IMG/VR virus record: IMGVR_UViG_3300032321_002024
Location: 128,001-192,000 of that record
Length of the DNA stretch: 64,000 bases
Direction: 5' to 3' (one strand)
DNA from: a virus
Taxonomy: Duplodnaviria; Caudoviricetes
Of the stretch, positions 3 to 37,735 are shown piece after piece (within the stretch, counting starts at the first letter, position 1; each line of letters starts with the position of its first letter). The translations under genes and the position numbers were made by a program. Under the pieces are notes generated by a model. That model was not told the origin of the DNA, ran no database searches, and was given only the letters and a program-made list of their open reading frames with translations.

Positions 3-2861
3 TTCTATGGATCTGATAATACATTGTGTAATACGGTTGATTCAAATATCATCGGTGGATCTTGTAATAGCATGACGGCTTCTTACACATCTACTATTGT
101 TGGTGGATATTGTAATAATTTATCTAATGCTTATACATCTATTATTGATGGTGGATTTAGAAACACAATTACCGATGGTGTTTCTAGTTCTGGTATTTTC
201 GCCGGTGGGTGTAACAAAATTTGTGGTGATGGTGATTATAATTATTACTCAGCTATTATAGCTGGATGTTGTAACTTAATCTCAGATGGTAATGAAGGGT
301 CTGTAATAGTGGGTGGTGGTCGTAATTGTATTTGTGATTATTCTTATAATTCTATGATATCAGCTGGATGTTGTAATTATATATGTGATTCTGATAGATC
401 ATCTATTATAGCAGGTCGTTGTAATACAATTTGTTGTTCTTCAGAAGATTCAACAATTATGGGTGGATGTTGTAACATAATGTCATGTACCGATGAAGGT
501 ACTATTATTGGTGGACATCGTAACTGTTTATCTTGTGTTGATTTAGGTTCTGTCATAATAGGTGGACACGATAATATAGTTGGTTATTGTGCTGATACTT
601 CTGGTATTTTTGCTGGATGTAATAACATAATTTGTGGTAACGGTCAATATTACTCAGCTATTATTGCTGGTGAGTGTAACGAATTAATATGTGGTAACGA
701 AGGAGCGGTAATTATAGGTGGATGTTGTAATCATATATGTGATTTTTCTTGTCAATCGGCTATTATTGGTGGATTTGACAACTGTATTATGAATAACAAT
801 GAAGGATCTATTATTTTAGGTGGATATGATAACTGTATTTGTAATGACTCTTGTTTATCTTCTATTATTGGTGGTTGTAATAATGGAATAAACTATTATT
901 CTTGTAAATCATCTATTGTTGGTGGGTCTAATAATGAAATTTGTTGTGATTCAGATAACTCAACTATAATTGGTGGTTTTGATAACTGTATTTATGATTC
1001 TAATAACTCTGGAATAATTGGTGGTTACAACAATGAAGTTTGTAATTCAAATAGATCTGTTATTATTGGTGGTTCAAGTATGACTCTTGATAATGAAGAT
1101 GATACAGTTTTAGTAAATCGTCTTAAAATTGACACTCTACAAAATGGAGCAGGTGATACTAGAATAGTTACTGCTGATAGTGAAGGTAGAATTAGATTCA
1201 GATGTGTATCTGGTTTAGTTCCTGAATTTGGTGGTATCGTAGTTGGTGCTACTGAATCGATGACAGGGTTTATGAACAGTATTTATAACTCTAGTAATGG
1301 TTCAGTTGTTGGTGGTGCTTATAACAGCATGACTGCATCAAATGCGGCTTCAATAATTGGAGGAAATTTTGGAACAGTTAGTAGCTCACCTGAATCAAGT
1401 ATTATAGGTGGTTGTTGTAATTGTATTACTAGCTACTCTTGTGATTCATCAATTATTGGTGGGGTTAGAAACTGTATTGATGATGGTTCTGTACAATCCG
1501 CAATTATTGGTGGATTTTATAATATAGTTGATGGTTCTAATTACTCATCTGTAATTGGTGGTCGTTGTGATGAGGTTTGCAACTCTGGTTTATCATCTGT
1601 TATAGGTGGTTCTAATAACTGCATTGGTAACTCTAATTACTCATCTGTTATAGGTGGACGTTGTAATTATGTTTATAGTAGTAATTGTGTATCTATAATT
1701 GGTGGATATAGTAGCTATGTAGGAGGTGGTTCAAGAGGCTCTTCAATTATCGGTGGTTCTGATAATAATATATACTATGAATCTTGTAACTCTTCAATTA
1801 TTGGTGGTCGAAATAATTGTGTGGATGAATACTCTTGTAATTCTGTTATTATTGGAGGTTATGATAACTTCATTTGTGGTTATGATGAGGATGAGGATTA
1901 TGGTTCTTGTAATTCAACTATTGTTGGTGGTTATAGAAATGAAATACGATATGCTTCATGTTACTCATCAGTTATTGGTGGATGTTGTAATAGAATTTGT
2001 GATTATTCTGATAATTCTGGTATTTTTGCTGGTGGTTGGAATAAAATTTGTGGTTCTGATAAATCAACTGTTGTTGGTGGTAATAATAACCACATTTGTA
2101 ACTCAGAAAGATCTGGTGTTATGTCAGGTCGAGCTAACTGTATTTGTAGTGATTCCGACTACTCATCTATTATAGCTGGTTGTGGTAATGAAATTTGTAA
2201 CGATTCTTGTTTATCTTCTATTATGGGTGGTTGTAATAATACTATTTATGATAATTCTTGTCAGTCTGTTATTATAGGTGGAACTGATAATGAAATTATT
2301 AACAATAATGAAGGTGCTGTTATCTTAGGGGGTTATGATAATCGTATTTGTTGTTGTTCTTCTAACTCAACAATTATCGGTGGTTGTTACAACTATATGT
2401 GTTGTTCTTCAAACTCGGTTATAATAGGTGGAACCGCAGCATCTCTCTATGAAAGAGATAATACTATATTGTTAAATGGTACAACTTGGTTAAATCAAAC
2501 GGTTGAAACATCTGAAGAAGTTACTGTAAGTACTCCAGGTGTTACAGCTAGCTTCTTAGATGGTAGTATTAAATACTTATCATCATTGAGTAATGACTTC
2601 CAAGTTGATTTCACTAACTTCCCTGATCCTGTTATTAATAACTCTGTTATTACTTATACATTAATCTTAAATCAAGGAGCAAGTCCTTATATGATTACCG
2701 ATTTAACTATAAATGGTGGTGGTACAGAAACTATTAAATGGAATGGTGGAAATGTGCCAAGTGGTACAGCAAACCAAGTTGATACAATTGTATTAATGTT
2801 TGTTTATAATAATTCAGGTGTATTAAGTCAAGTATTGGGACAAGTAGGTACATTTGCTTAA
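3..2861 (+). CDS. Cys/Gly-rich repeat tail-fibre/adhesin-like protein (5'-truncated by window edge)
   Basis: Dozens of ~14-15 aa S-x-I-I-G-G-x-x-N-x-I repeats (beta-roll/helix like); C-terminal IKWNGGNVPSGTANQVD domain resembles fibre tips. The frame is open upstream of the TTG at 24, so the real start is probably outside the window. Confidence 0.6.
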   Translation, partial: FYGSDNTLCNTVDSNIIGGSCNSMTASYTSTIVGGYCNNLSNAYTSIIDGGFRNTITDGVSSSGIFAGGCNKICGDGDYNYYSAIIAGCCNLISDGNEGSVIVGGGRNCICDYSYNSMISAGCCNYICDSDRSSIIAGRCNTICCSSEDSTIMGGCCNIMSCTDEGTIIGGHRNCLSCVDLGSVIIGGHDNIVGYCADTSGIFAGCNNIICGNGQYYSAIIAGECNELICGNEGAVIIGGCCNHICDFSCQSAIIGGFDNCIMNNNEGSIILGGYDNCICNDSCLSSIIGGCNNGINYYSCKSSIVGGSNNEICCDSDNSTIIGGFDNCIYDSNNSGIIGGYNNEVCNSNRSVIIGGSSMTLDNEDDTVLVNRLKIDTLQNGAGDTRIVTADSEGRIRFRCVSGLVPEFGGIVVGATESMTGFMNSIYNSSNGSVVGGAYNSMTASNAASIIGGNFGTVSSSPESSIIGGCCNCITSYSCDSSIIGGVRNCIDDGSVQSAIIGGFYNIVDGSNYSSVIGGRCDEVCNSGLSSVIGGSNNCIGNSNYSSVIGGRCNYVYSSNCVSIIGGYSSYVGGGSRGSSIIGGSDNNIYYESCNSSIIGGRNNCVDEYSCNSVIIGGYDNFICGYDEDEDYGSCNSTIVGGYRNEIRYASCYSSVIGGCCNRICDYSDNSGIFAGGWNKICGSDKSTVVGGNNNHICNSERSGVMSGRANCICSDSDYSSIIAGCGNEICNDSCLSSIMGGCNNTIYDNSCQSVIIGGTDNEIINNNEGAVILGGYDNRICCCSSNSTIIGGCYNYMCCSSNSVIIGGTAASLYERDNTILLNGTTWLNQTVETSEEVTVSTPGVTASFLDGSIKYLSSLSNDFQVDFTNFPDPVINNSVITYTLILNQGASPYMITDLTINGGGTETIKWNGGNVPSGTANQVDTIVLMFVYNNSGVLSQVLGQVGTFA

Positions 2862-2877
2862 AAAATAATTAAAATAA

Positions 2878-2991
2878 ATGATAAGTAAATTATCTTCATA
2901 TTTAGGACCAGCATCTCTCTTCAGGTTCATCAGCTCCAAGTTTAGTATTATACAGAATTTCAATGCTACTAAAAATAGATTTGGATTATAA
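2878..2991 (+). pseudogene. Remnant of a LamG/ConA-like phage protein gene (internal deletion)
   Basis: 37-aa ORF MISKLSSY...IQNFNATKNRFGL ends in the QN(F/Y)NATK-RFGL tail typical of phage LamG-domain proteins; an overlapping frame reads SGSSAPSLVLY, resembling their N-terminal LVLY motif. Confidence 0.5.
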
Positions 2992-2994
2992 ATT

Positions 2995-3003
2995 TAATAT
3001 ATA
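2995..3003 (+). promoter_or_regulatory. Putative phage late promoter motif TAATATATA
   Basis: Exact motif 4 nt before the ATG at 3008; recurs upstream of many genes. Confidence 0.6.
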
Positions 3004-3007
3004 GTCT

Positions 3008-4012
3008 ATGATTAAAAGATACTTAGAGTTTATTTCAGAATCAAATGTAGATGAGTTTGATTCATTCGGAAAATGGATAGAATCACTATCAGATGATGAG
3101 TATATTCTAAATATAGTCAATCGTTATATAAATGATTATAATAAACTATATGGTGGAGATGATGTCAATCCTACAATTGATTTATCAAATGCTGTTAATC
3201 TTTTAGATGAGAGAACTCAATTAGAAATAAAACAACAGATTGATGAATATTTACAATCAGGTATACAAGAAAAAGAACCTGTGGTTCTACCATCAACCGA
3301 CACTACTGAGCTATTAGGAGAGTCTATTCAAGCTCAGTCTGAAGTAACGGTTGCTGGTAAAGGAATCTTTACTTCTTTTTTAAAATCATTAACGGCTCTT
3401 GGTCTTAAAGAATCTAATCCTAATTGGTCAAATTGTCCAGATGATTTTTTACTTTATTATTCTTTTCAAAACATACAATCTGAATCAATAAAACAAATAT
3501 TTGGAAGATTTAGATCTCTTGAAAGATACTCACACTTAATAGACTATGGTAAAAATGAACTAAGTCTTTATTTTGGGTTAAATTGTTCAGGACAATTTGA
3601 ATATGGAATCGAATATGATACAAGATTTGCAATTGGTCAGTTTAAACTATCACAATCTGTTATTAAATGGATTTTGAGTTTAGATTCTAAATCAGCTGCT
3701 TCTCTTAAAAAAGAAATAGTTAACTTAAATTATTTAGATATTTTAACACTTGGTCAAATTAAAAGAGATATGTTGACATTCCAACCTGGTTATTTTGAGA
3801 AAAAATTATACCCTATGTTAAGAGACAGAGTTATAACTTTTGGTTTCTATGGAATTGGTCGTTGGGATAACGGAAAATTAGATGAAGGTGAATATCAAAA
3901 TTTAAAACAAAATTTTACAAATTGGTTAATGTCAAAAAAATGGTCAAGTAAAGTTTTAATTAGTGTTAAACCAGAATCTTTCTGGCTTTATTTCCATTTA
4001 AAATTAAAATAA
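3008..4012 (+). CDS. Hypothetical protein with capsid-targeting-like N-terminus
   Basis: 334-aa ORF; starts MIKRYLEFISE. Confidence 0.7.
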   Translation: MIKRYLEFISESNVDEFDSFGKWIESLSDDEYILNIVNRYINDYNKLYGGDDVNPTIDLSNAVNLLDERTQLEIKQQIDEYLQSGIQEKEPVVLPSTDTTELLGESIQAQSEVTVAGKGIFTSFLKSLTALGLKESNPNWSNCPDDFLLYYSFQNIQSESIKQIFGRFRSLERYSHLIDYGKNELSLYFGLNCSGQFEYGIEYDTRFAIGQFKLSQSVIKWILSLDSKSAASLKKEIVNLNYLDILTLGQIKRDMLTFQPGYFEKKLYPMLRDRVITFGFYGIGRWDNGKLDEGEYQNLKQNFTNWLMSKKWSSKVLISVKPESFWLYFHLKLK

Positions 4013-4060
4013 AATTATGAAATTAATTAAACTGTACTCAATAAAAAAATACTTTCAACT

Positions 4061-4423
4061 ATGAGAATTGTAAAAACATATGAGAATTTTAGAGAATTTG
4101 ACATCGACTTTATAATGGCTAAAATAAAACACCATTACTCTGACTATGATATTAAAAATTTAGTTGACGAAGAAATCGAAGAGTTGGTAGATGATAGTAG
4201 CCTTTCTAATATAACACTTTCTTCAAAAAGATTAGACAAAGAAGAAGGATATGAAACTAAAAGAGAGTGGTATGATGACCATGGTAATGGTGAAGCAGAA
4301 GAGTTAGCTACCGAAAGATTAGTTGATTGGTATATAGATGAATTTGGTGAAGAATTAACTGAAGAGCAAAAAGAAGAGTTATCAAAAAAGTTAATTATTA
4401 CTTATGATCTTAAGTCCTTTTAA
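4061..4423 (+). CDS. Acidic hypothetical protein with capsid-targeting-like N-terminus
   Basis: 120-aa ORF; starts MRIVKTYENFRE. Confidence 0.7.
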   Translation: MRIVKTYENFREFDIDFIMAKIKHHYSDYDIKNLVDEEIEELVDDSSLSNITLSSKRLDKEEGYETKREWYDDHGNGEAEELATERLVDWYIDEFGEELTEEQKEELSKKLIITYDLKSF

Positions 4424-4962
4424 TAATTTGAAACAACTCTAACCTTTTCATATTTAGTAAGAAGTTTAAACATATCATTCCAATCCTTTAAAGGATCTTC
4501 AACTTTTTTCTGATACCACTTATTATTGCTAAGATATTCAACAAGCATGCCTACTTTAAAATCTTCCATTTTTGTTGGTTTCCAGTATCTAACCTTTTCA
4601 ACAAAAGAAAAACTCACTCCATTATAAAGATAAGATATATTTTCTTCATCTGTGTTATAAAGTGTAACACCCATTGGTTTTTCTGAACCATCAGAGAAAA
4701 CTTTAGTTACGTCACTTTCTCCAGAATACTTTATAAATCCGCAGTCTTGATGAAAGTGATTTAATAAAAATATTAATTCTTTTCTTAACTCATCATTATT
4801 AACTGGCGCAAAAGCCATTGCTGAATCTTCATATTGGCCTTTATAATATCCTTTAATTGGTATAATTTGAAAGTTCTTTGCCCACAAAACAGACATCATA
4901 TCATCTAAAGAATCAGATGAAATAAGAATAAAAGACAATTTAGGGTTGTTTAAATCTATCAC
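4420..4962 (-). CDS. Hypothetical protein
   Basis: 180-aa ORF with GTG start just downstream of TAATATATA (4967-4975, minus strand). Confidence 0.65.
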   Translation of the reverse strand: MIDLNNPKLSFILISSDSLDDMMSVLWAKNFQIIPIKGYYKGQYEDSAMAFAPVNNDELRKELIFLLNHFHQDCGFIKYSGESDVTKVFSDGSEKPMGVTLYNTDEENISYLYNGVSFSFVEKVRYWKPTKMEDFKVGMLVEYLSNNKWYQKKVEDPLKDWNDMFKLLTKYEKVRVVSNY

Positions 4963-4990: not shown

Positions 4991-6214
4991 TTAAATCAAT
5001 TCAGCTGATAATTCATAGTCAAATATTGACTGAACTATATCTCTATATTTTTTAGGAAACACTAAAGAGTCATGAACTGTTATGATTTTTATTTCAGGAT
5101 TCAATAACATAATCTTTTTAATAATTTTATTATAGATTAAATTAGATTCGGCTCTTTGTAAGTCATGAGCTAATATCTTATGATTACTCCATTCTTTTTT
5201 ATACAATTTTATAAAATGGTGAATTGTTGGAAAAATTGATGAAAATATTTTATCAGATTTAGAATTTACTCTATTATGTCCAAAAAGAACTTTATAAATC
5301 ATTTCTTTTACTTTATTTCTATCTTTTTCACCAATTACTTGCATTATGTATTGATAGAAATTACCATTTGTTACTAATTTTCTAAAAAAATCAAACTCAT
5401 CTTTATTTACCCAAGCTGTTTGACTATCCTTAATTAGTTTACATAAGAAAAGTGGTTGAGAATTGCTAATATCAATTTCACAAGTTTCTTCACCATCAAT
5501 AAGTAGACAGTTTTTTCTTATGAATGATTTTAAAATAGTAAAATTGGTATGTAATCTACCATAGTTATCAAAGTGATAAAAAATATGTTTATCGTTTATA
5601 GATTCAACTGAATAAACATTACGATTGTAAATATCTATATCTTCTTTTTTAAGAAAATTCAAGAAAAGTATACTTCTTTCAAAGTCGATTTCAACACTAA
5701 AAAGATCTGAAATTAGCTTTTCTCTAATTTCTGGTTTAATCGATGATTCGTGTTGTTTGACAAAATCTATAGTATCGTAAATCTTCTTTTTATATTTCTT
5801 TAAAAGAAATTTATCTTCATTCTTTACACGACTAATTTGTTCTTTGAATATAATTGAATTTAGTTCGTATATTCTAGATGTAACTCCAGCTTTATAGTTA
5901 CACTTCATTTTGATAATATTTTTGTAGATTAAAAAATCCACATAAGACTTATACTCATGTCCGTATTTCTGTTTTAGAACCGTAGCGTTAATTGTGAATT
6001 TGTTTTCTTTCTTAAAGTAATACTTAAGTATCATATTATGGATCATATCCACGAGATAAGCTGTTTTAAGTTTTTTATCAGAGAATTGAACGAATTTTAA
6101 TTTACTGATTTCTTCTAAACATTTTGGTAAGAATTGTAATGATTTGGTTTTTTTATCTAATTTTTGAGTTATTGTTGAGCGATAAACTGATTCTAATTCG
6201 TTTGATATTTTCAT
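4991..6214 (-). CDS. Family-A polymerase palm-like protein
   Basis: GRLHTNFT, EIDISNSQP (motif A-like) and ITVHDSLVF (motif C-like); no exonuclease domain evident. Confidence 0.5.
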   Translation of the reverse strand: MKISNELESVYRSTITQKLDKKTKSLQFLPKCLEEISKLKFVQFSDKKLKTAYLVDMIHNMILKYYFKKENKFTINATVLKQKYGHEYKSYVDFLIYKNIIKMKCNYKAGVTSRIYELNSIIFKEQISRVKNEDKFLLKKYKKKIYDTIDFVKQHESSIKPEIREKLISDLFSVEIDFERSILFLNFLKKEDIDIYNRNVYSVESINDKHIFYHFDNYGRLHTNFTILKSFIRKNCLLIDGEETCEIDISNSQPLFLCKLIKDSQTAWVNKDEFDFFRKLVTNGNFYQYIMQVIGEKDRNKVKEMIYKVLFGHNRVNSKSDKIFSSIFPTIHHFIKLYKKEWSNHKILAHDLQRAESNLIYNKIIKKIMLLNPEIKIITVHDSLVFPKKYRDIVQSIFDYELSAELI

Positions 6215-6246: not shown

Positions 6247-6447
6247 TTAGTTAGAAAATATATTTTTGATTGAATTTTTTCGATTTTTTCTTCTTAGCTC
6301 TTTGGCAATATAAATCTCAAAAGAACTCATATCAATATCAGTAAATACCTCTAAGTCTTTAGCCATCTCACGAGTCCAAGAAGCCTTTAATGTTCTTGTT
6401 TGAGCTTTGACCTCAACAGAAGTCATACTAATATCAACCGATTTCAT
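6247..6447 (-). CDS. Mini-protein resembling a fragment of T4 gp23-type major capsid protein
   Basis: VEVKAQTRTLKASWTREMAKDL resembles the gp23 segment AKSRxLKAxY(S/T)xELAQDL; ends RKNSIKNIFSN. Confidence 0.55.
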   Translation of the reverse strand: MKSVDISMTSVEVKAQTRTLKASWTREMAKDLEVFTDIDMSSFEIYIAKELRRKNRKNSIKNIFSN

Positions 6448-7781
6448 TACTTAGTTGGTGTTTCTGGTGATTTAGATTGATCCTCTATTGGAAACTTACC
6501 TTTGCCTTTTTTCTTTTTACCAGTATCTGCCTCTTTTTCAAACTCATCATAAACATCTGGATAAACTTGACCTTCACCATCTGTATCATATTGAATATCA
6601 AAGAAATCACCAAAATCAAGTAAACCAGCTCTACCCAATTCAATTTCTTGAATCTTATTCAGATATTGACCAATATAGTTTTCGATATCATCTACAAATT
6701 TATTAAATAACTTAACTGTATTTTCAGTAAAAATTCCAATTGGCTTTTTTCTCTTTTTATTGAAAGATCCTAAAATTACTTTAAAGATATATTCAAGTTT
6801 ATCGTCTTCTTTAAGATAATCTTTTGTAAGTTTATTTTTAATTAACTCTGTATTTATTTTGAACTTTTCTTTATCAAAAAATTCAGGAACTACAAAGTCA
6901 AAATTAAGCAAATCTTCTTTTACTTCTCCAACATAAACGTTGAATAATTTACAAACTAAATAAATATACATTTCTTCTTTTGTATCTCCTTTTAGTTTAA
7001 TAGATTCTATTTGAACAGACTGACAGAAATTTAAAAAGTTAACCAAAATTAGTGTGTAGATTTCTACAAACTCAGTAGAATTTGAATCACTCATTCTTTT
7101 ATAAAGTGGATTCAATAACTCAAAAGAAATATCTCTTACTGAACTTCTTATGATAAGTTTCTCCAAGTTTTTCTGGAAGTCTTCTTCCATTAAAAATGAA
7201 TTTTCAGAAAGAGGATTTAATATCTTATAGAAAAAATAAGAAAATGATTTATCACCAAAAACATAGTCTAAATCATCTTCAGACGTATTCAGGAAGTAGA
7301 TAATAGCTTCTTTCATAGTCTCAGTCAACTTACCTTGATAAATGACTGGAATCAAATCTACATCAAAAAGTCTTGAGTATTCATCAAGCTCTTCAATATT
7401 AAACTCAAACTTACCGCCTTTGTTAATTGAACTTAGAACTAAATGGTTTTTAGGAACTCTAGCATACTCGATATTAGCTGGCTGTTCATCTGGAAAATAT
7501 TCAAAACAAAACCACCATTTGCGATTAAGTAAACTTTTAACTCTATCATCTAATTCAGAAAAGAATTTTGTTACTGGATTGTAGTAATTTTGCATTGCTA
7601 AATCAATCAAATTGATTGGTTCATTTGTAGTTGACTTTGGTCTTATTTCAAATCCTTGACCATCCCATTTAATCCAAATTTTTGAACCTTGAATATCTTC
7701 TACTATTATTAATTCGTCATTTAAAATTTCATTTAATAACGCTTTATCTTCAGTGCTGTTTAACTTAATTAATTTACTCAT
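6447..7781 (-). CDS. Hypothetical protein, degenerate RNA-ligase-like N-terminal domain
   Basis: IVEDIQGSKI resembles ligase motif I (EKxDGS) without the catalytic Lys; also FCFEYF and IPVIYQG. Confidence 0.4.
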   Translation of the reverse strand: MSKLIKLNSTEDKALLNEILNDELIIVEDIQGSKIWIKWDGQGFEIRPKSTTNEPINLIDLAMQNYYNPVTKFFSELDDRVKSLLNRKWWFCFEYFPDEQPANIEYARVPKNHLVLSSINKGGKFEFNIEELDEYSRLFDVDLIPVIYQGKLTETMKEAIIYFLNTSEDDLDYVFGDKSFSYFFYKILNPLSENSFLMEEDFQKNLEKLIIRSSVRDISFELLNPLYKRMSDSNSTEFVEIYTLILVNFLNFCQSVQIESIKLKGDTKEEMYIYLVCKLFNVYVGEVKEDLLNFDFVVPEFFDKEKFKINTELIKNKLTKDYLKEDDKLEYIFKVILGSFNKKRKKPIGIFTENTVKLFNKFVDDIENYIGQYLNKIQEIELGRAGLLDFGDFFDIQYDTDGEGQVYPDVYDEFEKEADTGKKKKGKGKFPIEDQSKSPETPTK

Positions 7782-13623: not shown

Positions 13624-13836
13624 ATGAAATTTGATAATTACTACTTAGACTTAGAAAAAGTTAATTCTCTTAAATCAAAAGAGGAAAAAGAACAAATACA
13701 TCGATATTATATGGATATGATGCACTGTTTTTCTGATAATAGAAATTCTATGGGTATGTCAATTTTTAACACGTTAAATAAATCAGAATATCTAAAAGAA
13801 ATCAGATCTGAAAAAATAGAACAGATATTATCATAA
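13624..13836 (+). CDS. Small hypothetical protein with C-terminal RxxKIxxIL motif
   Basis: 70 aa, ends IRSEKIEQILS. Confidence 0.65.
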   Translation: MKFDNYYLDLEKVNSLKSKEEKEQIHRYYMDMMHCFSDNRNSMGMSIFNTLNKSEYLKEIRSEKIEQILS

Positions 13837-26956: not shown

Positions 26957-27667
26957 ATGGAAAAGAAAAAAATATTAATATTTACTGGAGCTGGAGTGTC
27001 TGCTGAAAGTGGTGTTGCTACATTCAGAACTGGTGATGATGGATTGTGGTATAATCACAAAGTAGAAGATGTTGCTACTCCAGATGGGTGGCGTAGAAAT
27101 AAAGAAAAAGTCTTAAATTTCTACAATATGCGTCGTGCTCAACTTAAAGAGGTTGAACCAAATTTGGCACACCAAATAATTTCTGATTTAGAAAAAGATT
27201 TTGATGTTGTGATTGTGACGCAAAATGTTGATAATTTACACGAAAGAGCTGGTTCTACTAATATAATTCATTTACACGGTGAATTAACAAAAGTTCGTTC
27301 TACTTTAGATTCTACTTTAATTTATGATTGGACTGAAGATTGTAATATAGGTGATAAATGTGAGAAAGGTTCTCAGTTAAGACCACATATTGTTTGGTTT
27401 GGAGAAAATTTGAATCCAAAAATGATTGAAAGAGCTGAAGAATCTGCTTATGAGTGTGATATCTGTATTATTGTAGGAACTTCAATGCAAGTTGCTCCAG
27501 CAAATCAAATTCCATTTTTAACAAAACCCAATACACTTATTTATGTAGTTGATCCAGCTGAAATGGATTTTCATATTGACAAACAAAGAAAACCATTTTT
27601 ATATCTTATTAAGGAAGTTGCTTCAGTTGGAATGGAAAAAGTTAAAAACGATTTAATAAATTTATAA
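26957..27667 (+). CDS. cobB: Sir2/CobB NAD-dependent deacylase
   Basis: GAGVSAESGVATFR, TQNVDNLHERAG, HLHGEL, LRPHIVWFGE, VGTSMQVAPA. Confidence 0.92.
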   Translation: MEKKKILIFTGAGVSAESGVATFRTGDDGLWYNHKVEDVATPDGWRRNKEKVLNFYNMRRAQLKEVEPNLAHQIISDLEKDFDVVIVTQNVDNLHERAGSTNIIHLHGELTKVRSTLDSTLIYDWTEDCNIGDKCEKGSQLRPHIVWFGENLNPKMIERAEESAYECDICIIVGTSMQVAPANQIPFLTKPNTLIYVVDPAEMDFHIDKQRKPFLYLIKEVASVGMEKVKNDLINL

Positions 27668-27669
27668 TT

Positions 27670-27852
27670 ATGAAAAATAAATACAACACATACAGCACAT
27701 ATAATGACTATGGTAATTATGTAGATATAAATGATTATATAAAAGAATATGGTGATTGGACTACATATGATCCTGAGACCAAAGAGGAAAGATTGGCTCG
27801 TGAAAAAGTTGAAAAAAGAAATGATAAAATAAATTTGATATTAAATGATTGA
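27670..27852 (+). CDS. Small hypothetical protein with C-terminal RxxKIxxIL motif
   Basis: 60 aa, ends KRNDKINLILND. Confidence 0.6.
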   Translation: MKNKYNTYSTYNDYGNYVDINDYIKEYGDWTTYDPETKEERLAREKVEKRNDKINLILND

Positions 27853-28441
27853 AGAAATAGAACCACATACTGACTTAATAAAATACTTTGAAATTACTCA
27901 CAATTTCAAATCAGATTTATCGGTCAATGTTTTTACAGATAACGGTGAACATTATAATGTTTTAAGTGATATTGACCAAAATATATTCTTACTTAAAAAA
28001 TTAAATGAATTTGATTTTTTAAAAGAAGAAAATCATATTTGTGATTGTGGAATTGGATTAGGAAATGCTCTTTTTGAAATTTATTTACAGTCTTTAGATA
28101 TAAATAAAAATTTCTATTTCTATGGTGTTGAAAAACAAGATGTTTATATAAAATTTATTATTGATAATTTATCACATCTTTGGAAAGATAAACTTAGTCT
28201 TATTAAAGATGATATTATGAATGTAGATTATTCTAAATTCAATATAGTTTATTCATATTCTCCTTTCAATAATAAAAAACAATTAGAGAAAATGTATCAA
28301 AAGATAGTCAATGAAATTCAATTAGGTTCTATTATAGTTGAAAATGCTAACTTAGGAAAAGGACACTTTGAGTTATTAAGAGAATTTACTGAGTTAGAAG
28401 AGATAGATTTAGATGGACTATACATATACAAAAAGATATGA
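27845..28441 (+). CDS. Class I SAM-dependent methyltransferase
   Basis: ICDCGIGLG, YGVEKQ, DDIMNVDYSKFNIVYSYSPF; paralog of 62289-62897. Confidence 0.75.
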   Translation: MIEEIEPHTDLIKYFEITHNFKSDLSVNVFTDNGEHYNVLSDIDQNIFLLKKLNEFDFLKEENHICDCGIGLGNALFEIYLQSLDINKNFYFYGVEKQDVYIKFIIDNLSHLWKDKLSLIKDDIMNVDYSKFNIVYSYSPFNNKKQLEKMYQKIVNEIQLGSIIVENANLGKGHFELLREFTELEEIDLDGLYIYKKI

Positions 28442-28638
28442 AAGATATCAACAAATATCTCAATGATTTAATGAAATCTGGAATTGACCCAAGTAAAACT
28501 AATATTGTTTTGGGAAAAGCCAGACAAACTGGTAAAAGTTGGTCAACTGCATCTTTAATGGCTTGGAAAGAATTACATTCTAAATATGAGAGAGCTCGGT
28601 TAAGAAAAGAAAGTATAAATAAAATCTTTAATATATAA
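28438..28638 (+). CDS. Mini-protein resembling a terminase large subunit Walker-A fragment
   Basis: IVLGKARQTGKSWSTA resembles the T4 gp17-type xRQxGK(S/T) motif; ends RKESINKIFNI. Confidence 0.55.
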   Translation: MKDINKYLNDLMKSGIDPSKTNIVLGKARQTGKSWSTASLMAWKELHSKYERARLRKESINKIFNI

Positions 28639-28655
28639 CAAAAATTAAATTTTTT

Positions 28656-29216
28656 ATGAATTTACAAGAACTACTTAATAAATGGAATATCAAATGTGAT
28701 GTTAATACACTGCTTTCAATGTGGAATGAATCACACAGATCTTATCACACTTTAAATCATTTAAATGATGTTATTGACCAAATCAATGAGAATAAATCTA
28801 AATACTCTGGTAAAGAATATGAGAAATTGATGTTGACTGCTCTTTTCCACGATTGTGTTTATGACCCAATGAAAAGTGATAACGAAGAAAAATCTGCTAA
28901 ATTCTTTATTGAGTGTTGTTTAGATAAATCTAATTCAGATGTTTTAGAAGTAAAACAAATGATTTTAGATACAAAGACTCACGAAGCTACAACAAACCTT
29001 TCAGAGTCATTTAATCACTATGATATGAGTATTGTTGAAAGAGATTTTGACCAATTATTGGAATGGGAAAATGGTATTGCGGAAGAGTATAAAGGTTATG
29101 ATAAAGTAGTTTATAAAAATGGTAGATTAAAATTCTTAGAATCTTTATTGGACAAATATCCTCATAATACAGAGAACTTACTTAAATTAGCTGAGTGGGT
29201 TAAAACTAACTACTAA
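28656..29216 (+). CDS. HD-superfamily metal-dependent phosphohydrolase
   Basis: RSYHTLNH, ALFHDCVYDP, DNEEKSA. Confidence 0.82.
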   Translation: MNLQELLNKWNIKCDVNTLLSMWNESHRSYHTLNHLNDVIDQINENKSKYSGKEYEKLMLTALFHDCVYDPMKSDNEEKSAKFFIECCLDKSNSDVLEVKQMILDTKTHEATTNLSESFNHYDMSIVERDFDQLLEWENGIAEEYKGYDKVVYKNGRLKFLESLLDKYPHNTENLLKLAEWVKTNY

Positions 29217-37240: not shown

Positions 37241-37508
37241 GATACTTTTATTTTCTGTTCTTTTAAGTTTTAATTTGTTCTCACAAGATACAACAAAATT
37301 AATGAGACAACATTTGATAGGTGGTTGTGTTATGGTAACCGCATCAATTATGCCTTACTCGGTTGCTTACCAGACTTATATTTATAATAAACAAAATCCA
37401 TACTCATATCTTTATACTGGAGTTTGGTTTTCATTTGGATTGGTTTTAGACATATCAGCGACTAATCATTTCATCCAATATCATAAATTAAAAAAGAAAT
37501 ATAAATGA
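37227..37508 (+). CDS. Putative membrane protein with signal peptide
   Basis: ATG start MTTIKILLFSVLLSFNLFSQ; two further hydrophobic segments. Confidence 0.55.
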   Translation: MTTIKILLFSVLLSFNLFSQDTTKLMRQHLIGGCVMVTASIMPYSVAYQTYIYNKQNPYSYLYTGVWFSFGLVLDISATNHFIQYHKLKKKYK

Positions 37509-37735
37509 GATATAAAAAAGGAGATATTGTAATTTGTGTAACTAATAAGATGTATGGAATGACATACCTATTAGAGGAAGGCGAACAATATCGAATTGAT
37601 GATTTTGTTGTGGTAGGTGAAAAAACCTTAGTAAGTGTAAGTAAATCAGGAGAACACGTTAGTATATTTGATGATAAACATTTTATGCCATTAGATGTTT
37701 GGAGAGAATTTCAACTAAGAAAATTATTGAAATAA
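37505..37735 (+). CDS. Small hypothetical protein with C-terminal Rxx(Q)LxxLL motif
   Basis: Ends VWREFQLRKLLK. Confidence 0.65.
   Translation: MRYKKGDIVICVTNKMYGMTYLLEEGEQYRIDDFVVVGEKTLVSVSKSGEHVSIFDDKHFMPLDVWREFQLRKLLK

Follow-up and report, generated by a model that had tools for sequence, protein, structure and literature searches.

A selected two-module phage microprotein that joins a T4-type capsid segment to a widely distributed C-terminal tag

Eukaryotic microProteins and engineered dominant-negative fragments consist of one piece of a larger self-associating protein and act by competitive, non-productive binding. In Bodo saltans virus, ankyrin-repeat ORFs carry fragments of essential viral genes and have been proposed to be decoys. 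In phage T4, the Gol peptide, which belongs to the first quarter of the major capsid protein gp23, activates Lit (PMC3014915), and the C-terminal tails of gp43, gp55 and gp33, which are hydrophobic and acidic, bind the sliding clamp (PMC2988020). The 66-residue phage protein described here, mini-protein A (mini A), resembles each of these systems in part. It differs from the microProteins and dominant-negative fragments in being viral, in deriving from a capsid protein that differs in type from that of the phage itself and in carrying a predicted docking tag that occurs genome-wide. Both Bodo saltans virus and the present phage are large viruses with extra ORFs in which pieces of essential gene families are fused to a common module; the former is, however, a eukaryotic giant virus whose common module is a folded repeat domain, whereas the module of the phage is a 9-residue helix. 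Like mini A, Gol is a short linear segment taken from a T4-type capsid protein, and it is active alone in the exclusion system formed with Lit and EF-Tu, but it is not a separate gene (PMC3014915). Mini A is encoded by a gene of its own and aligns to gp23 residues 259-285, and it was therefore rejected as a counterpart of the Gol/Lit trigger region, which lies in the first quarter of gp23 (PMC3014915). The clamp-binding tails are the nearest formal analogue of the tag: both are short, portable peptides at the extreme C-terminus of unrelated proteins, and the T4 tails are read by one hub, but these are acidic and are found on the polymerase and late transcription factors (PMC2988020), whereas the tag is basic and is found on small orphan proteins. 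No paper describing tagged capsid-fragment proteins in phages was found in the literature. New are the comparison of the phage's own with the canonical capsid protein, the lack of co-evolution between mini A and the former, the mapping relative to Gol and the conserved coupling to the upstream gene.

The window, i.e. the whole stretch of 64,000 nucleotides that was analysed, comprises bases 128001-192000 of a 262.6-kb virus record (G000; G+C content 29.8%, estimated completeness 84%). An earlier reading made from the sequence alone (the sequence-only reading) had pointed out an intact 66-aa ORF overlapping the stop codon of its upstream gene, with a core resembling a conserved segment of T4 gp23-type capsid proteins. 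Both observations were borne out. The ORF is intact, and its ATG start codon overlaps the TAA stop codon of a 444-aa ORF by one base (TAATG; Table 1). Residues 2-42 matched positions 132-172 of the 376 positions of Pfam family PF07068 (Gp23) with 30.1 bits (E 4.2e-7), which is above the curated gathering cut-off of 24.4 bits, and the same residues matched PHROG 138, 'major head protein' (E 2.4e-6). In pairwise alignment, residues 13-39 showed 37% identity to T4 gp23 residues 259-285 (E 4e-5); residues 12-65 aligned to residues 167-220 of the T4 vertex protein gp24 (E 1e-3). A scan for sigma-70-type promoters and terminators around the gene was uninformative.

Table 1. Positions of mini A, its parts, its neighbours and other tagged ORFs (window numbering, or record numbering where prefixed by G000)
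Feature	Position	Strand	Basis or remark
Mini-protein A	6247..6447	-	intact 66-aa ORF, ATG start
TAATG stop/start overlap, upstream gene to mini A	6445..6449	-	arrangement typical of translational coupling
Capsid-like module, residues 2-42 of mini A	6322..6444	-	Pfam Gp23 match, T4 gp23/gp24 alignments
C-terminal tag region, residues 52-64 (RRKNRKNSIKNIF)	6256..6294	-	core RKNSIKNIF at 6256-6282
Upstream 444-aa gene, possibly RNA-ligase-like	6447..7781	-	synteny; label is a lead from atlas neighbours
Downstream 407-aa gene, possibly family A polymerase palm-like	4991..6214	-	synteny; named via atlas neighbours alone
70-aa tag carrier ending ...IRSEKIEQILS	13624..13836	+	pattern match
60-aa tag carrier ending ...KRNDKINLILND	27670..27852	+	pattern match; directly after Sir2 gene
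Terminase-like mini, 66 aa, tag RKESINKIF	28438..28638	+	weak PHROG 2 match, TerL alignment
76-aa tag carrier ending ...WREFQLRKLLK	37505..37735	+	pattern match
Tagged spine-helix mini	G000 72964-73218 (= L002 1396-1650)	+	no ATG, GTG or TTG start in the open frame
Two tagged C-terminal capsid pieces	G000 about 73780-74191
88-aa tagged chimera	G000:C1:33819-34085	-	own-type capsid N-terminus plus sheath-like PGVYI motif

In terms of the HK97-type fold, we take the matched segment to consist of the long strand of the P-domain and the first part of the spine helix, the strand-and-helix piece that is most conserved in T4-type capsid proteins. Mini A thus has the P-domain strand and spine helix with the signature W-[TS]-x-E-L-A-x-D-L in common with gp23 and gp24 of T4-type phages, but it has only 66 aa and covers only about 40 of the 376 profile positions. 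It possesses neither the N-arm nor the A-domain nor the C-terminal part of these proteins, adds a basic C-terminal tag and, unlike gp23 and gp24, is encoded at a distance from the head genes and, in relatives, alongside a full capsid gene. Since the N-arm, A-domain and C-terminal part are lacking, mini A cannot form a shell subunit. An AlphaFold model computed with the family alignment (mean pLDDT 73) likewise showed no full-length capsid subunit, but a coil at residues 1-25 and two helices at residues 26-35 and 42-64, the second of which includes the tag and is part of the best-scored stretch. Near-invariant within the family are the capsid signature residues S10, V13, R18, W24, T25, E27 and D31, other positions of the module being variable, and, in the tag region, R52, R56, K57, I60, I63 and F64 are invariant or nearly so. 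A profile search of the PDB with the mini A family gave only chance-level matches (E ~0.8).

A word-based search yielded 40 cluster representatives of mini A of 59-69 aa. An exhaustive search with the family profile yielded 881 proteins at E <=1e-3, the best ~120 of which were 42-75 aa long and had a common architecture. The family comprises >100 clusters at 50% identity, again of 42-75 aa. Full-length capsid proteins in the global search matched positions 3-51 of the mini A profile alone (E 1e-8) and did not match the tag. In 34 viral contigs, the mini A gene was nearly always located between homologues of the 444-aa and the 407-aa gene, and the 444-aa gene was syntenic with it at 31 of 35 loci. 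Close pairs of relatives gave dN/dS values of 0.15-0.3 (Nei-Gojobori). The sequence-only reading had considered the ORF a gene rather than debris, and had named the lack of a gp23 profile match and the lack of purifying selection as results that would count against it; instead, the Gp23 match was significant and purifying selection was evident from the dN/dS values, which, together with the fixed position and the number of clusters, upholds its view. Mini A is a stand-alone two-module microprotein maintained by selection. Its identity to relatives was 36-88%, that of the flanking genes 52-90%.

A local rapid change was observed in the capsid-like module of a mini-ORF (3001-3213) of the loci L032 and L037, which belong to nearly identical phages. 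Ten amino-acid changes, all within the first 31 codons, were accompanied by one or two silent changes, only one of which fell in these codons; this is not significantly above neutrality, and the remaining codons were almost identical.

Mini A ends in ...RKNSIKNIFSN and the terminase-like mini in ...RKESINKIFNI. The near identity of the two tags (RKNSIKNIF and RKESINKIF), which had been noticed beforehand, does not arise by chance. A census of C-termini was made with the pattern [RK]xxx[IL]xx[IL][FLY], placed <=6 residues from the C-terminus. With this loose pattern, 18 of the 311 ORFs of the record carried the tag, a 16-fold enrichment over other protein positions, and all 18 carriers were <=177 aa long. 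Mini A, in which RKNSIKNIF lies 2 residues from the end, is one of them, and five carriers in all are located in the window, at 6247, 13624, 27670, 28438 and 37505. A 436-kb, 95%-complete relative gave the same 16-fold enrichment (29 of 545 ORFs). Scans of ten other carriers against Pfam and PHROG revealed one domain of unknown function and no informative family. Throughout the clade, the tag thus labels the C-termini of small proteins that are not otherwise related, and because it sits on many such proteins it is a general label and not a special trait of the fragment-bearing ones. The latter form a subset of the carriers with the closest form of the tag, RKxSINKIF.

Synonymous variation of the tag codons indicates that selection acts on the peptide. 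Among 20 relatives, Arg was encoded by CGA, AGA, AGG, CGT or CGC, Ser by TCA, TCT, TCC or TCG, Ile by ATA, ATC or ATT and Phe by TTT or TTC. The tag DNA was also dissimilar among the paralogous minis of the record, and the T4 late-promoter word TATAAATA occurred in only 2 of the 20 tag sequences. The tag as a DNA element, for example a T4-type late promoter inside the S-I-N-K codons or the conserved 5' end of an intron, was rejected on these grounds. A clamp-binding tail is not supported, since the tag is basic, the PolB ORFs of the record end otherwise and without the tag, and a gp45-type clamp domain (PF09116) was found neither in the record nor in the 95%-complete relative. The hydrophobic residues of the T4 clamp tails have the same i, i+3, i+4 spacing as those of the tag. 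In the PolB region G000:C1:46809-50089 (+), the family B polymerase match covered only part of a 508-aa ORF, after which comes a 566-aa ORF, and the gene may be split or interrupted.

Further tagged minis carry other pieces of hallmark proteins. Residues 19-53 of the terminase mini weakly matched the large-terminase family PHROG 2 (E 0.0034). Its family, which is conserved (31 clusters) and has the invariant residues K27, R29, Q30, G32 and S34 and the ending RKE.I..IFNI, aligned to residues 106-147 of the phage's own TerL (E 2.5e-4) and to T4 gp17 residues 155-176; it covers the part of TerL that reaches the Walker A motif and extends slightly past it. The true TerL gene is intact at about G000 2400-4580. 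Similarity to a foreign type is therefore not a rule for all minis, as this one resembles the TerL of the phage itself slightly more than it does T4 gp17. The surrounding gene row (26957-29216, +) consists of a Sir2-family protein (E 2.5e-45), the tagged 60-aa ORF, a methyltransferase-like 198-aa ORF, the terminase mini with an ATGA overlap, and an HD-type phosphohydrolase (PHROG 19425).

Among the capsid-derived minis, the spine-helix mini and the larger C-terminal mini were, like mini A, of the canonical type, and the N-terminal chimera was of the phage's own type. The orthologue of the spine-helix mini in the 635-kb phage LR745206 starts with ATG, and the copy of the record may be decaying or may start at an unusual codon. 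The 88-aa chimera showed 44% identity to residues 8-57 of the LR745206 capsid protein and contained a tail-sheath-like stretch, ISPGVYIRDVDSS, together with a tag variant, RRIKKILRIF. In LR745206, orthologues of the tagged minis are scattered over the genome, in addition to an intact 560-aa capsid gene. The global search also showed that proteins of 97-189 aa from other phages hold the capsid piece of mini A in other settings. In four of these from other lineages (P0122, P0124, P0127 and P0137; 97-125 aa), the spine-helix piece is joined to a piece matching T4 gp23 residues 95-120, and both ends of the proteins have an FKFFRG-like motif, possibly another kind of tag or else a site of processing. 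One other-lineage protein contains two copies of the capsid piece with TRKVLFEK between them.

A comparison of mini A with the phage's own capsid gene, as proposed in the sequence-only reading, was carried out with the capsid protein of the clade. No full capsid gene was found in the record, probably because the record is incomplete. The close relative G001, in which the flanking genes are 87-90% identical to those of the record, has a full capsid gene of 590 aa. The profile of the mini family matched the canonical T4-type capsid protein of a metagenomic contig with a probability of 96.6% (E 4.9e-10), whereas its match to segment 331-392 of the clade's own capsid protein reached a probability of 32% (E 4.8e-4, 21% identity). 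BLASTP of mini A gave 37.7 bits with a canonical capsid protein versus 19.2 bits with the clade's own. Mini A is therefore far closer to the canonical type. The clade's own capsid protein also changes much more slowly than mini A: between G001 and LR745206, its homologous segment was ~95% identical, while the minis were 52% identical over 33 residues. Judged from these comparisons, mini A has kept the canonical T4-type signature and has not co-evolved with the capsid protein of the phage itself. The similarity to the canonical type could also be a retained ancestral state instead of reflecting a foreign target, two origins that forty residues cannot separate.

Two other origins were rejected. 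Only 1 of the 196 small ORFs of G001 matched one of its own large proteins at E <1e-3, which argues against a recent duplication within the phage genome as the source of mini A. A fragmented capsid gene, whether by exons, trans-splicing, a split intein or stop-codon recoding, does not agree with the intact 560-590-aa gene that relatives possess in addition to the minis; this gene is uninterrupted, and the stretches of capsid sequence in minis A and B overlap. The tag, moreover, is not conserved at the DNA or RNA level, lacks a universal nucleophile residue and gives no support for a splicing element.

The explanation that we prefer, at a little less than even confidence, is mimicry: mini A would act on whichever partner recognises the canonical form of the capsid element, and a foreign target is favoured. 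Binding, target and the role of the tag are what we infer from the sequences. Module 1 (residues 1-51) corresponds cleanly to the spine helix and signature strand found in major capsid proteins of the canonical T4 type; taken alone, its strand region is predicted to be unstructured and helices to come after it. Module 2 (residues 52-64) is predicted to form a C-terminal helix that is basic at first and then hydrophobic. As the tag is found on ~5% of the ORFs of the clade with the pattern used, all of them small, it may serve to dock its carriers to one shared partner, or to address them to it. Mini A would bind whatever normally pairs with or recognises the capsid element, and the tag would bring it to, or hold it at, the proposed common reader. 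The likeliest target would be foreign, namely the capsid protein of a co-infecting T4-type phage, the folding or assembly of which would be poisoned in a dominant-negative manner, an action against competing phages that the sequence-only reading had also considered; alternatively, a host factor recognising the canonical motif may be the target. What speaks for a foreign target is that the fragment belongs to the canonical type and has evolved independently of the capsid protein of the phage itself. Support for mimicry comes from the sister mini-ORFs, in which the same tag is joined to other pieces of capsid protein and to a piece of terminase, and from the small proteins of other lineages, which have the same capsid piece with different flanking motifs. 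Within the HK97-type fold, the fragment belongs to the internal core and is not an obvious subunit interface, so that poisoning of assembly is conjectural.

Rather unlikely, though the best of the competing explanations, is the first option of the sequence-only reading, by which mini A is a decoy or blocker of a host immune sensor for capsid proteins, occupying the sensor without triggering it, while a common effector or location is reached through the tag. The tagged minis do copy hallmark proteins that are read by known sensors, i.e. capsid protein and terminase, and mini A evolves faster than its flanking genes. Other lineages join the capsid piece to a gp23 95-120 piece, which lies inside the first quarter of gp23 that holds Gol (PMC3014915). 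Mini A itself, however, corresponds to gp23 residues outside Gol, and no Gol-like mini was found in the clade. A decoy shielding the phage's own capsid protein would also be expected to resemble that protein, whereas mini A is of the canonical type. Action on something foreign, be it a competing T4-type phage or a host factor, would therefore fit the sequence comparisons better than a decoy shielding the own capsid protein.

Mini A could also be a small partner or regulator of the 444-aa protein, with the capsid sequence serving only as evolutionary raw material. Its gene directly follows the 444-aa gene at a fixed position, the TAATG junction was kept in 17 of 19 distinct relatives, and the gene block resembles nucleic-acid enzymes and not a head module. 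The one-base overlap and the fixed position after the 444-aa gene would suit a partner of the 444-aa enzyme equally well. This explanation is nevertheless improbable, as the invariant residues are exactly those of the capsid signature W-T-x-E-x-A-x-D-L, full-length capsid proteins were still matched at E 1e-8, and the sister minis with the same tag adjoin unrelated genes. Furthermore, the mini diverges far faster than the 444-aa protein (65% versus 90% identity in locus L017).

The 444-aa protein is 70-90% identical across the clade. Its atlas neighbours are RNA-ligase families, and it weakly matched the C-domain of T4 Rnl2 (E 0.09); no match was obtained in Pfam, the PDB or NCBIfam, and its AlphaFold model was poor (pLDDT 44). 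At what we take to be the place of the motif I lysine of Rnl2-type ligases, it reads E-D-I-Q-G-S, with Asp at that place. As a curious parallel to the location of this gene beside a capsid-fragment gene, the Rnl2 gene of T4 directly adjoins capsid gene 24. The atlas neighbours of the downstream 407-aa protein are named 'family A DNA polymerase palm domain'. It had no match in Pfam or the PDB, and its stretches DISNSQP, KVLFG and VHDS are, as we assume, reminiscent of the PolA motifs A, B and C.

Still more doubtful is a role as helper or cargo in the assembly of the phage's own head, either as a capsid chaperone or as a protein that enters the head by means of the tag, akin to the capsid targeting sequence of T4. 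The mini does derive from a capsid protein, and its whole length can be aligned to the own capsid segment, with the tag falling on the helix end ...SKQIVAKIF, in a similar way as to gp24 of T4. The similarity to the own capsid protein is weak, however, with the low identity and probability given above, and the own capsid segment is nearly invariant, whereas the mini changes fast. The mini A gene is moreover located among enzyme genes and not among head genes, and the tag, being C-terminal and basic, is unlike the T4 targeting sequence. Very improbable, finally, is gene debris or a chance ORF without function: the protein is indeed very short and without assigned function, in a record without a full capsid gene, but >100 clusters keep its length and architecture under the low dN/dS reported above, synteny and start context are conserved, and close relatives carry the full capsid gene besides the mini.

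Beyond the mimicry proposed for mini A, a wider and distinctly less probable reading is that the clade has a peptide-addressed interference system, in which a docking helix marks dozens of small proteins for a common reader and a subset with the most conserved motifs of canonical hallmark proteins poisons competing T4-type phages at assembly or replication, or blinds host sensors that are tuned to these motifs. The motifs would, on this unlikely reading, be the capsid strand with spine helix, the capsid C-terminus and the terminase Walker A segment, and, just as speculatively, other lineages of huge phages would have a similar library with different tags. If the mimicry model is true, mini A would show that phages in nature employ excerpts of conserved virion and replication motifs, under a common peptide label, as weapons or shields, and it would bear on phage-phage competition and on the evasion of immune sensors that read capsid and terminase. 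The 66-residue protein, its three to five signature residues and the 9-residue tag are small reagents, and the reader of the tag would explain a trait common to ~5% of the ORFs in very large phages, as counted with the pattern used. Even with a mundane target, a modular logic can be read in some of the small 'orphan' genes that huge phages carry.
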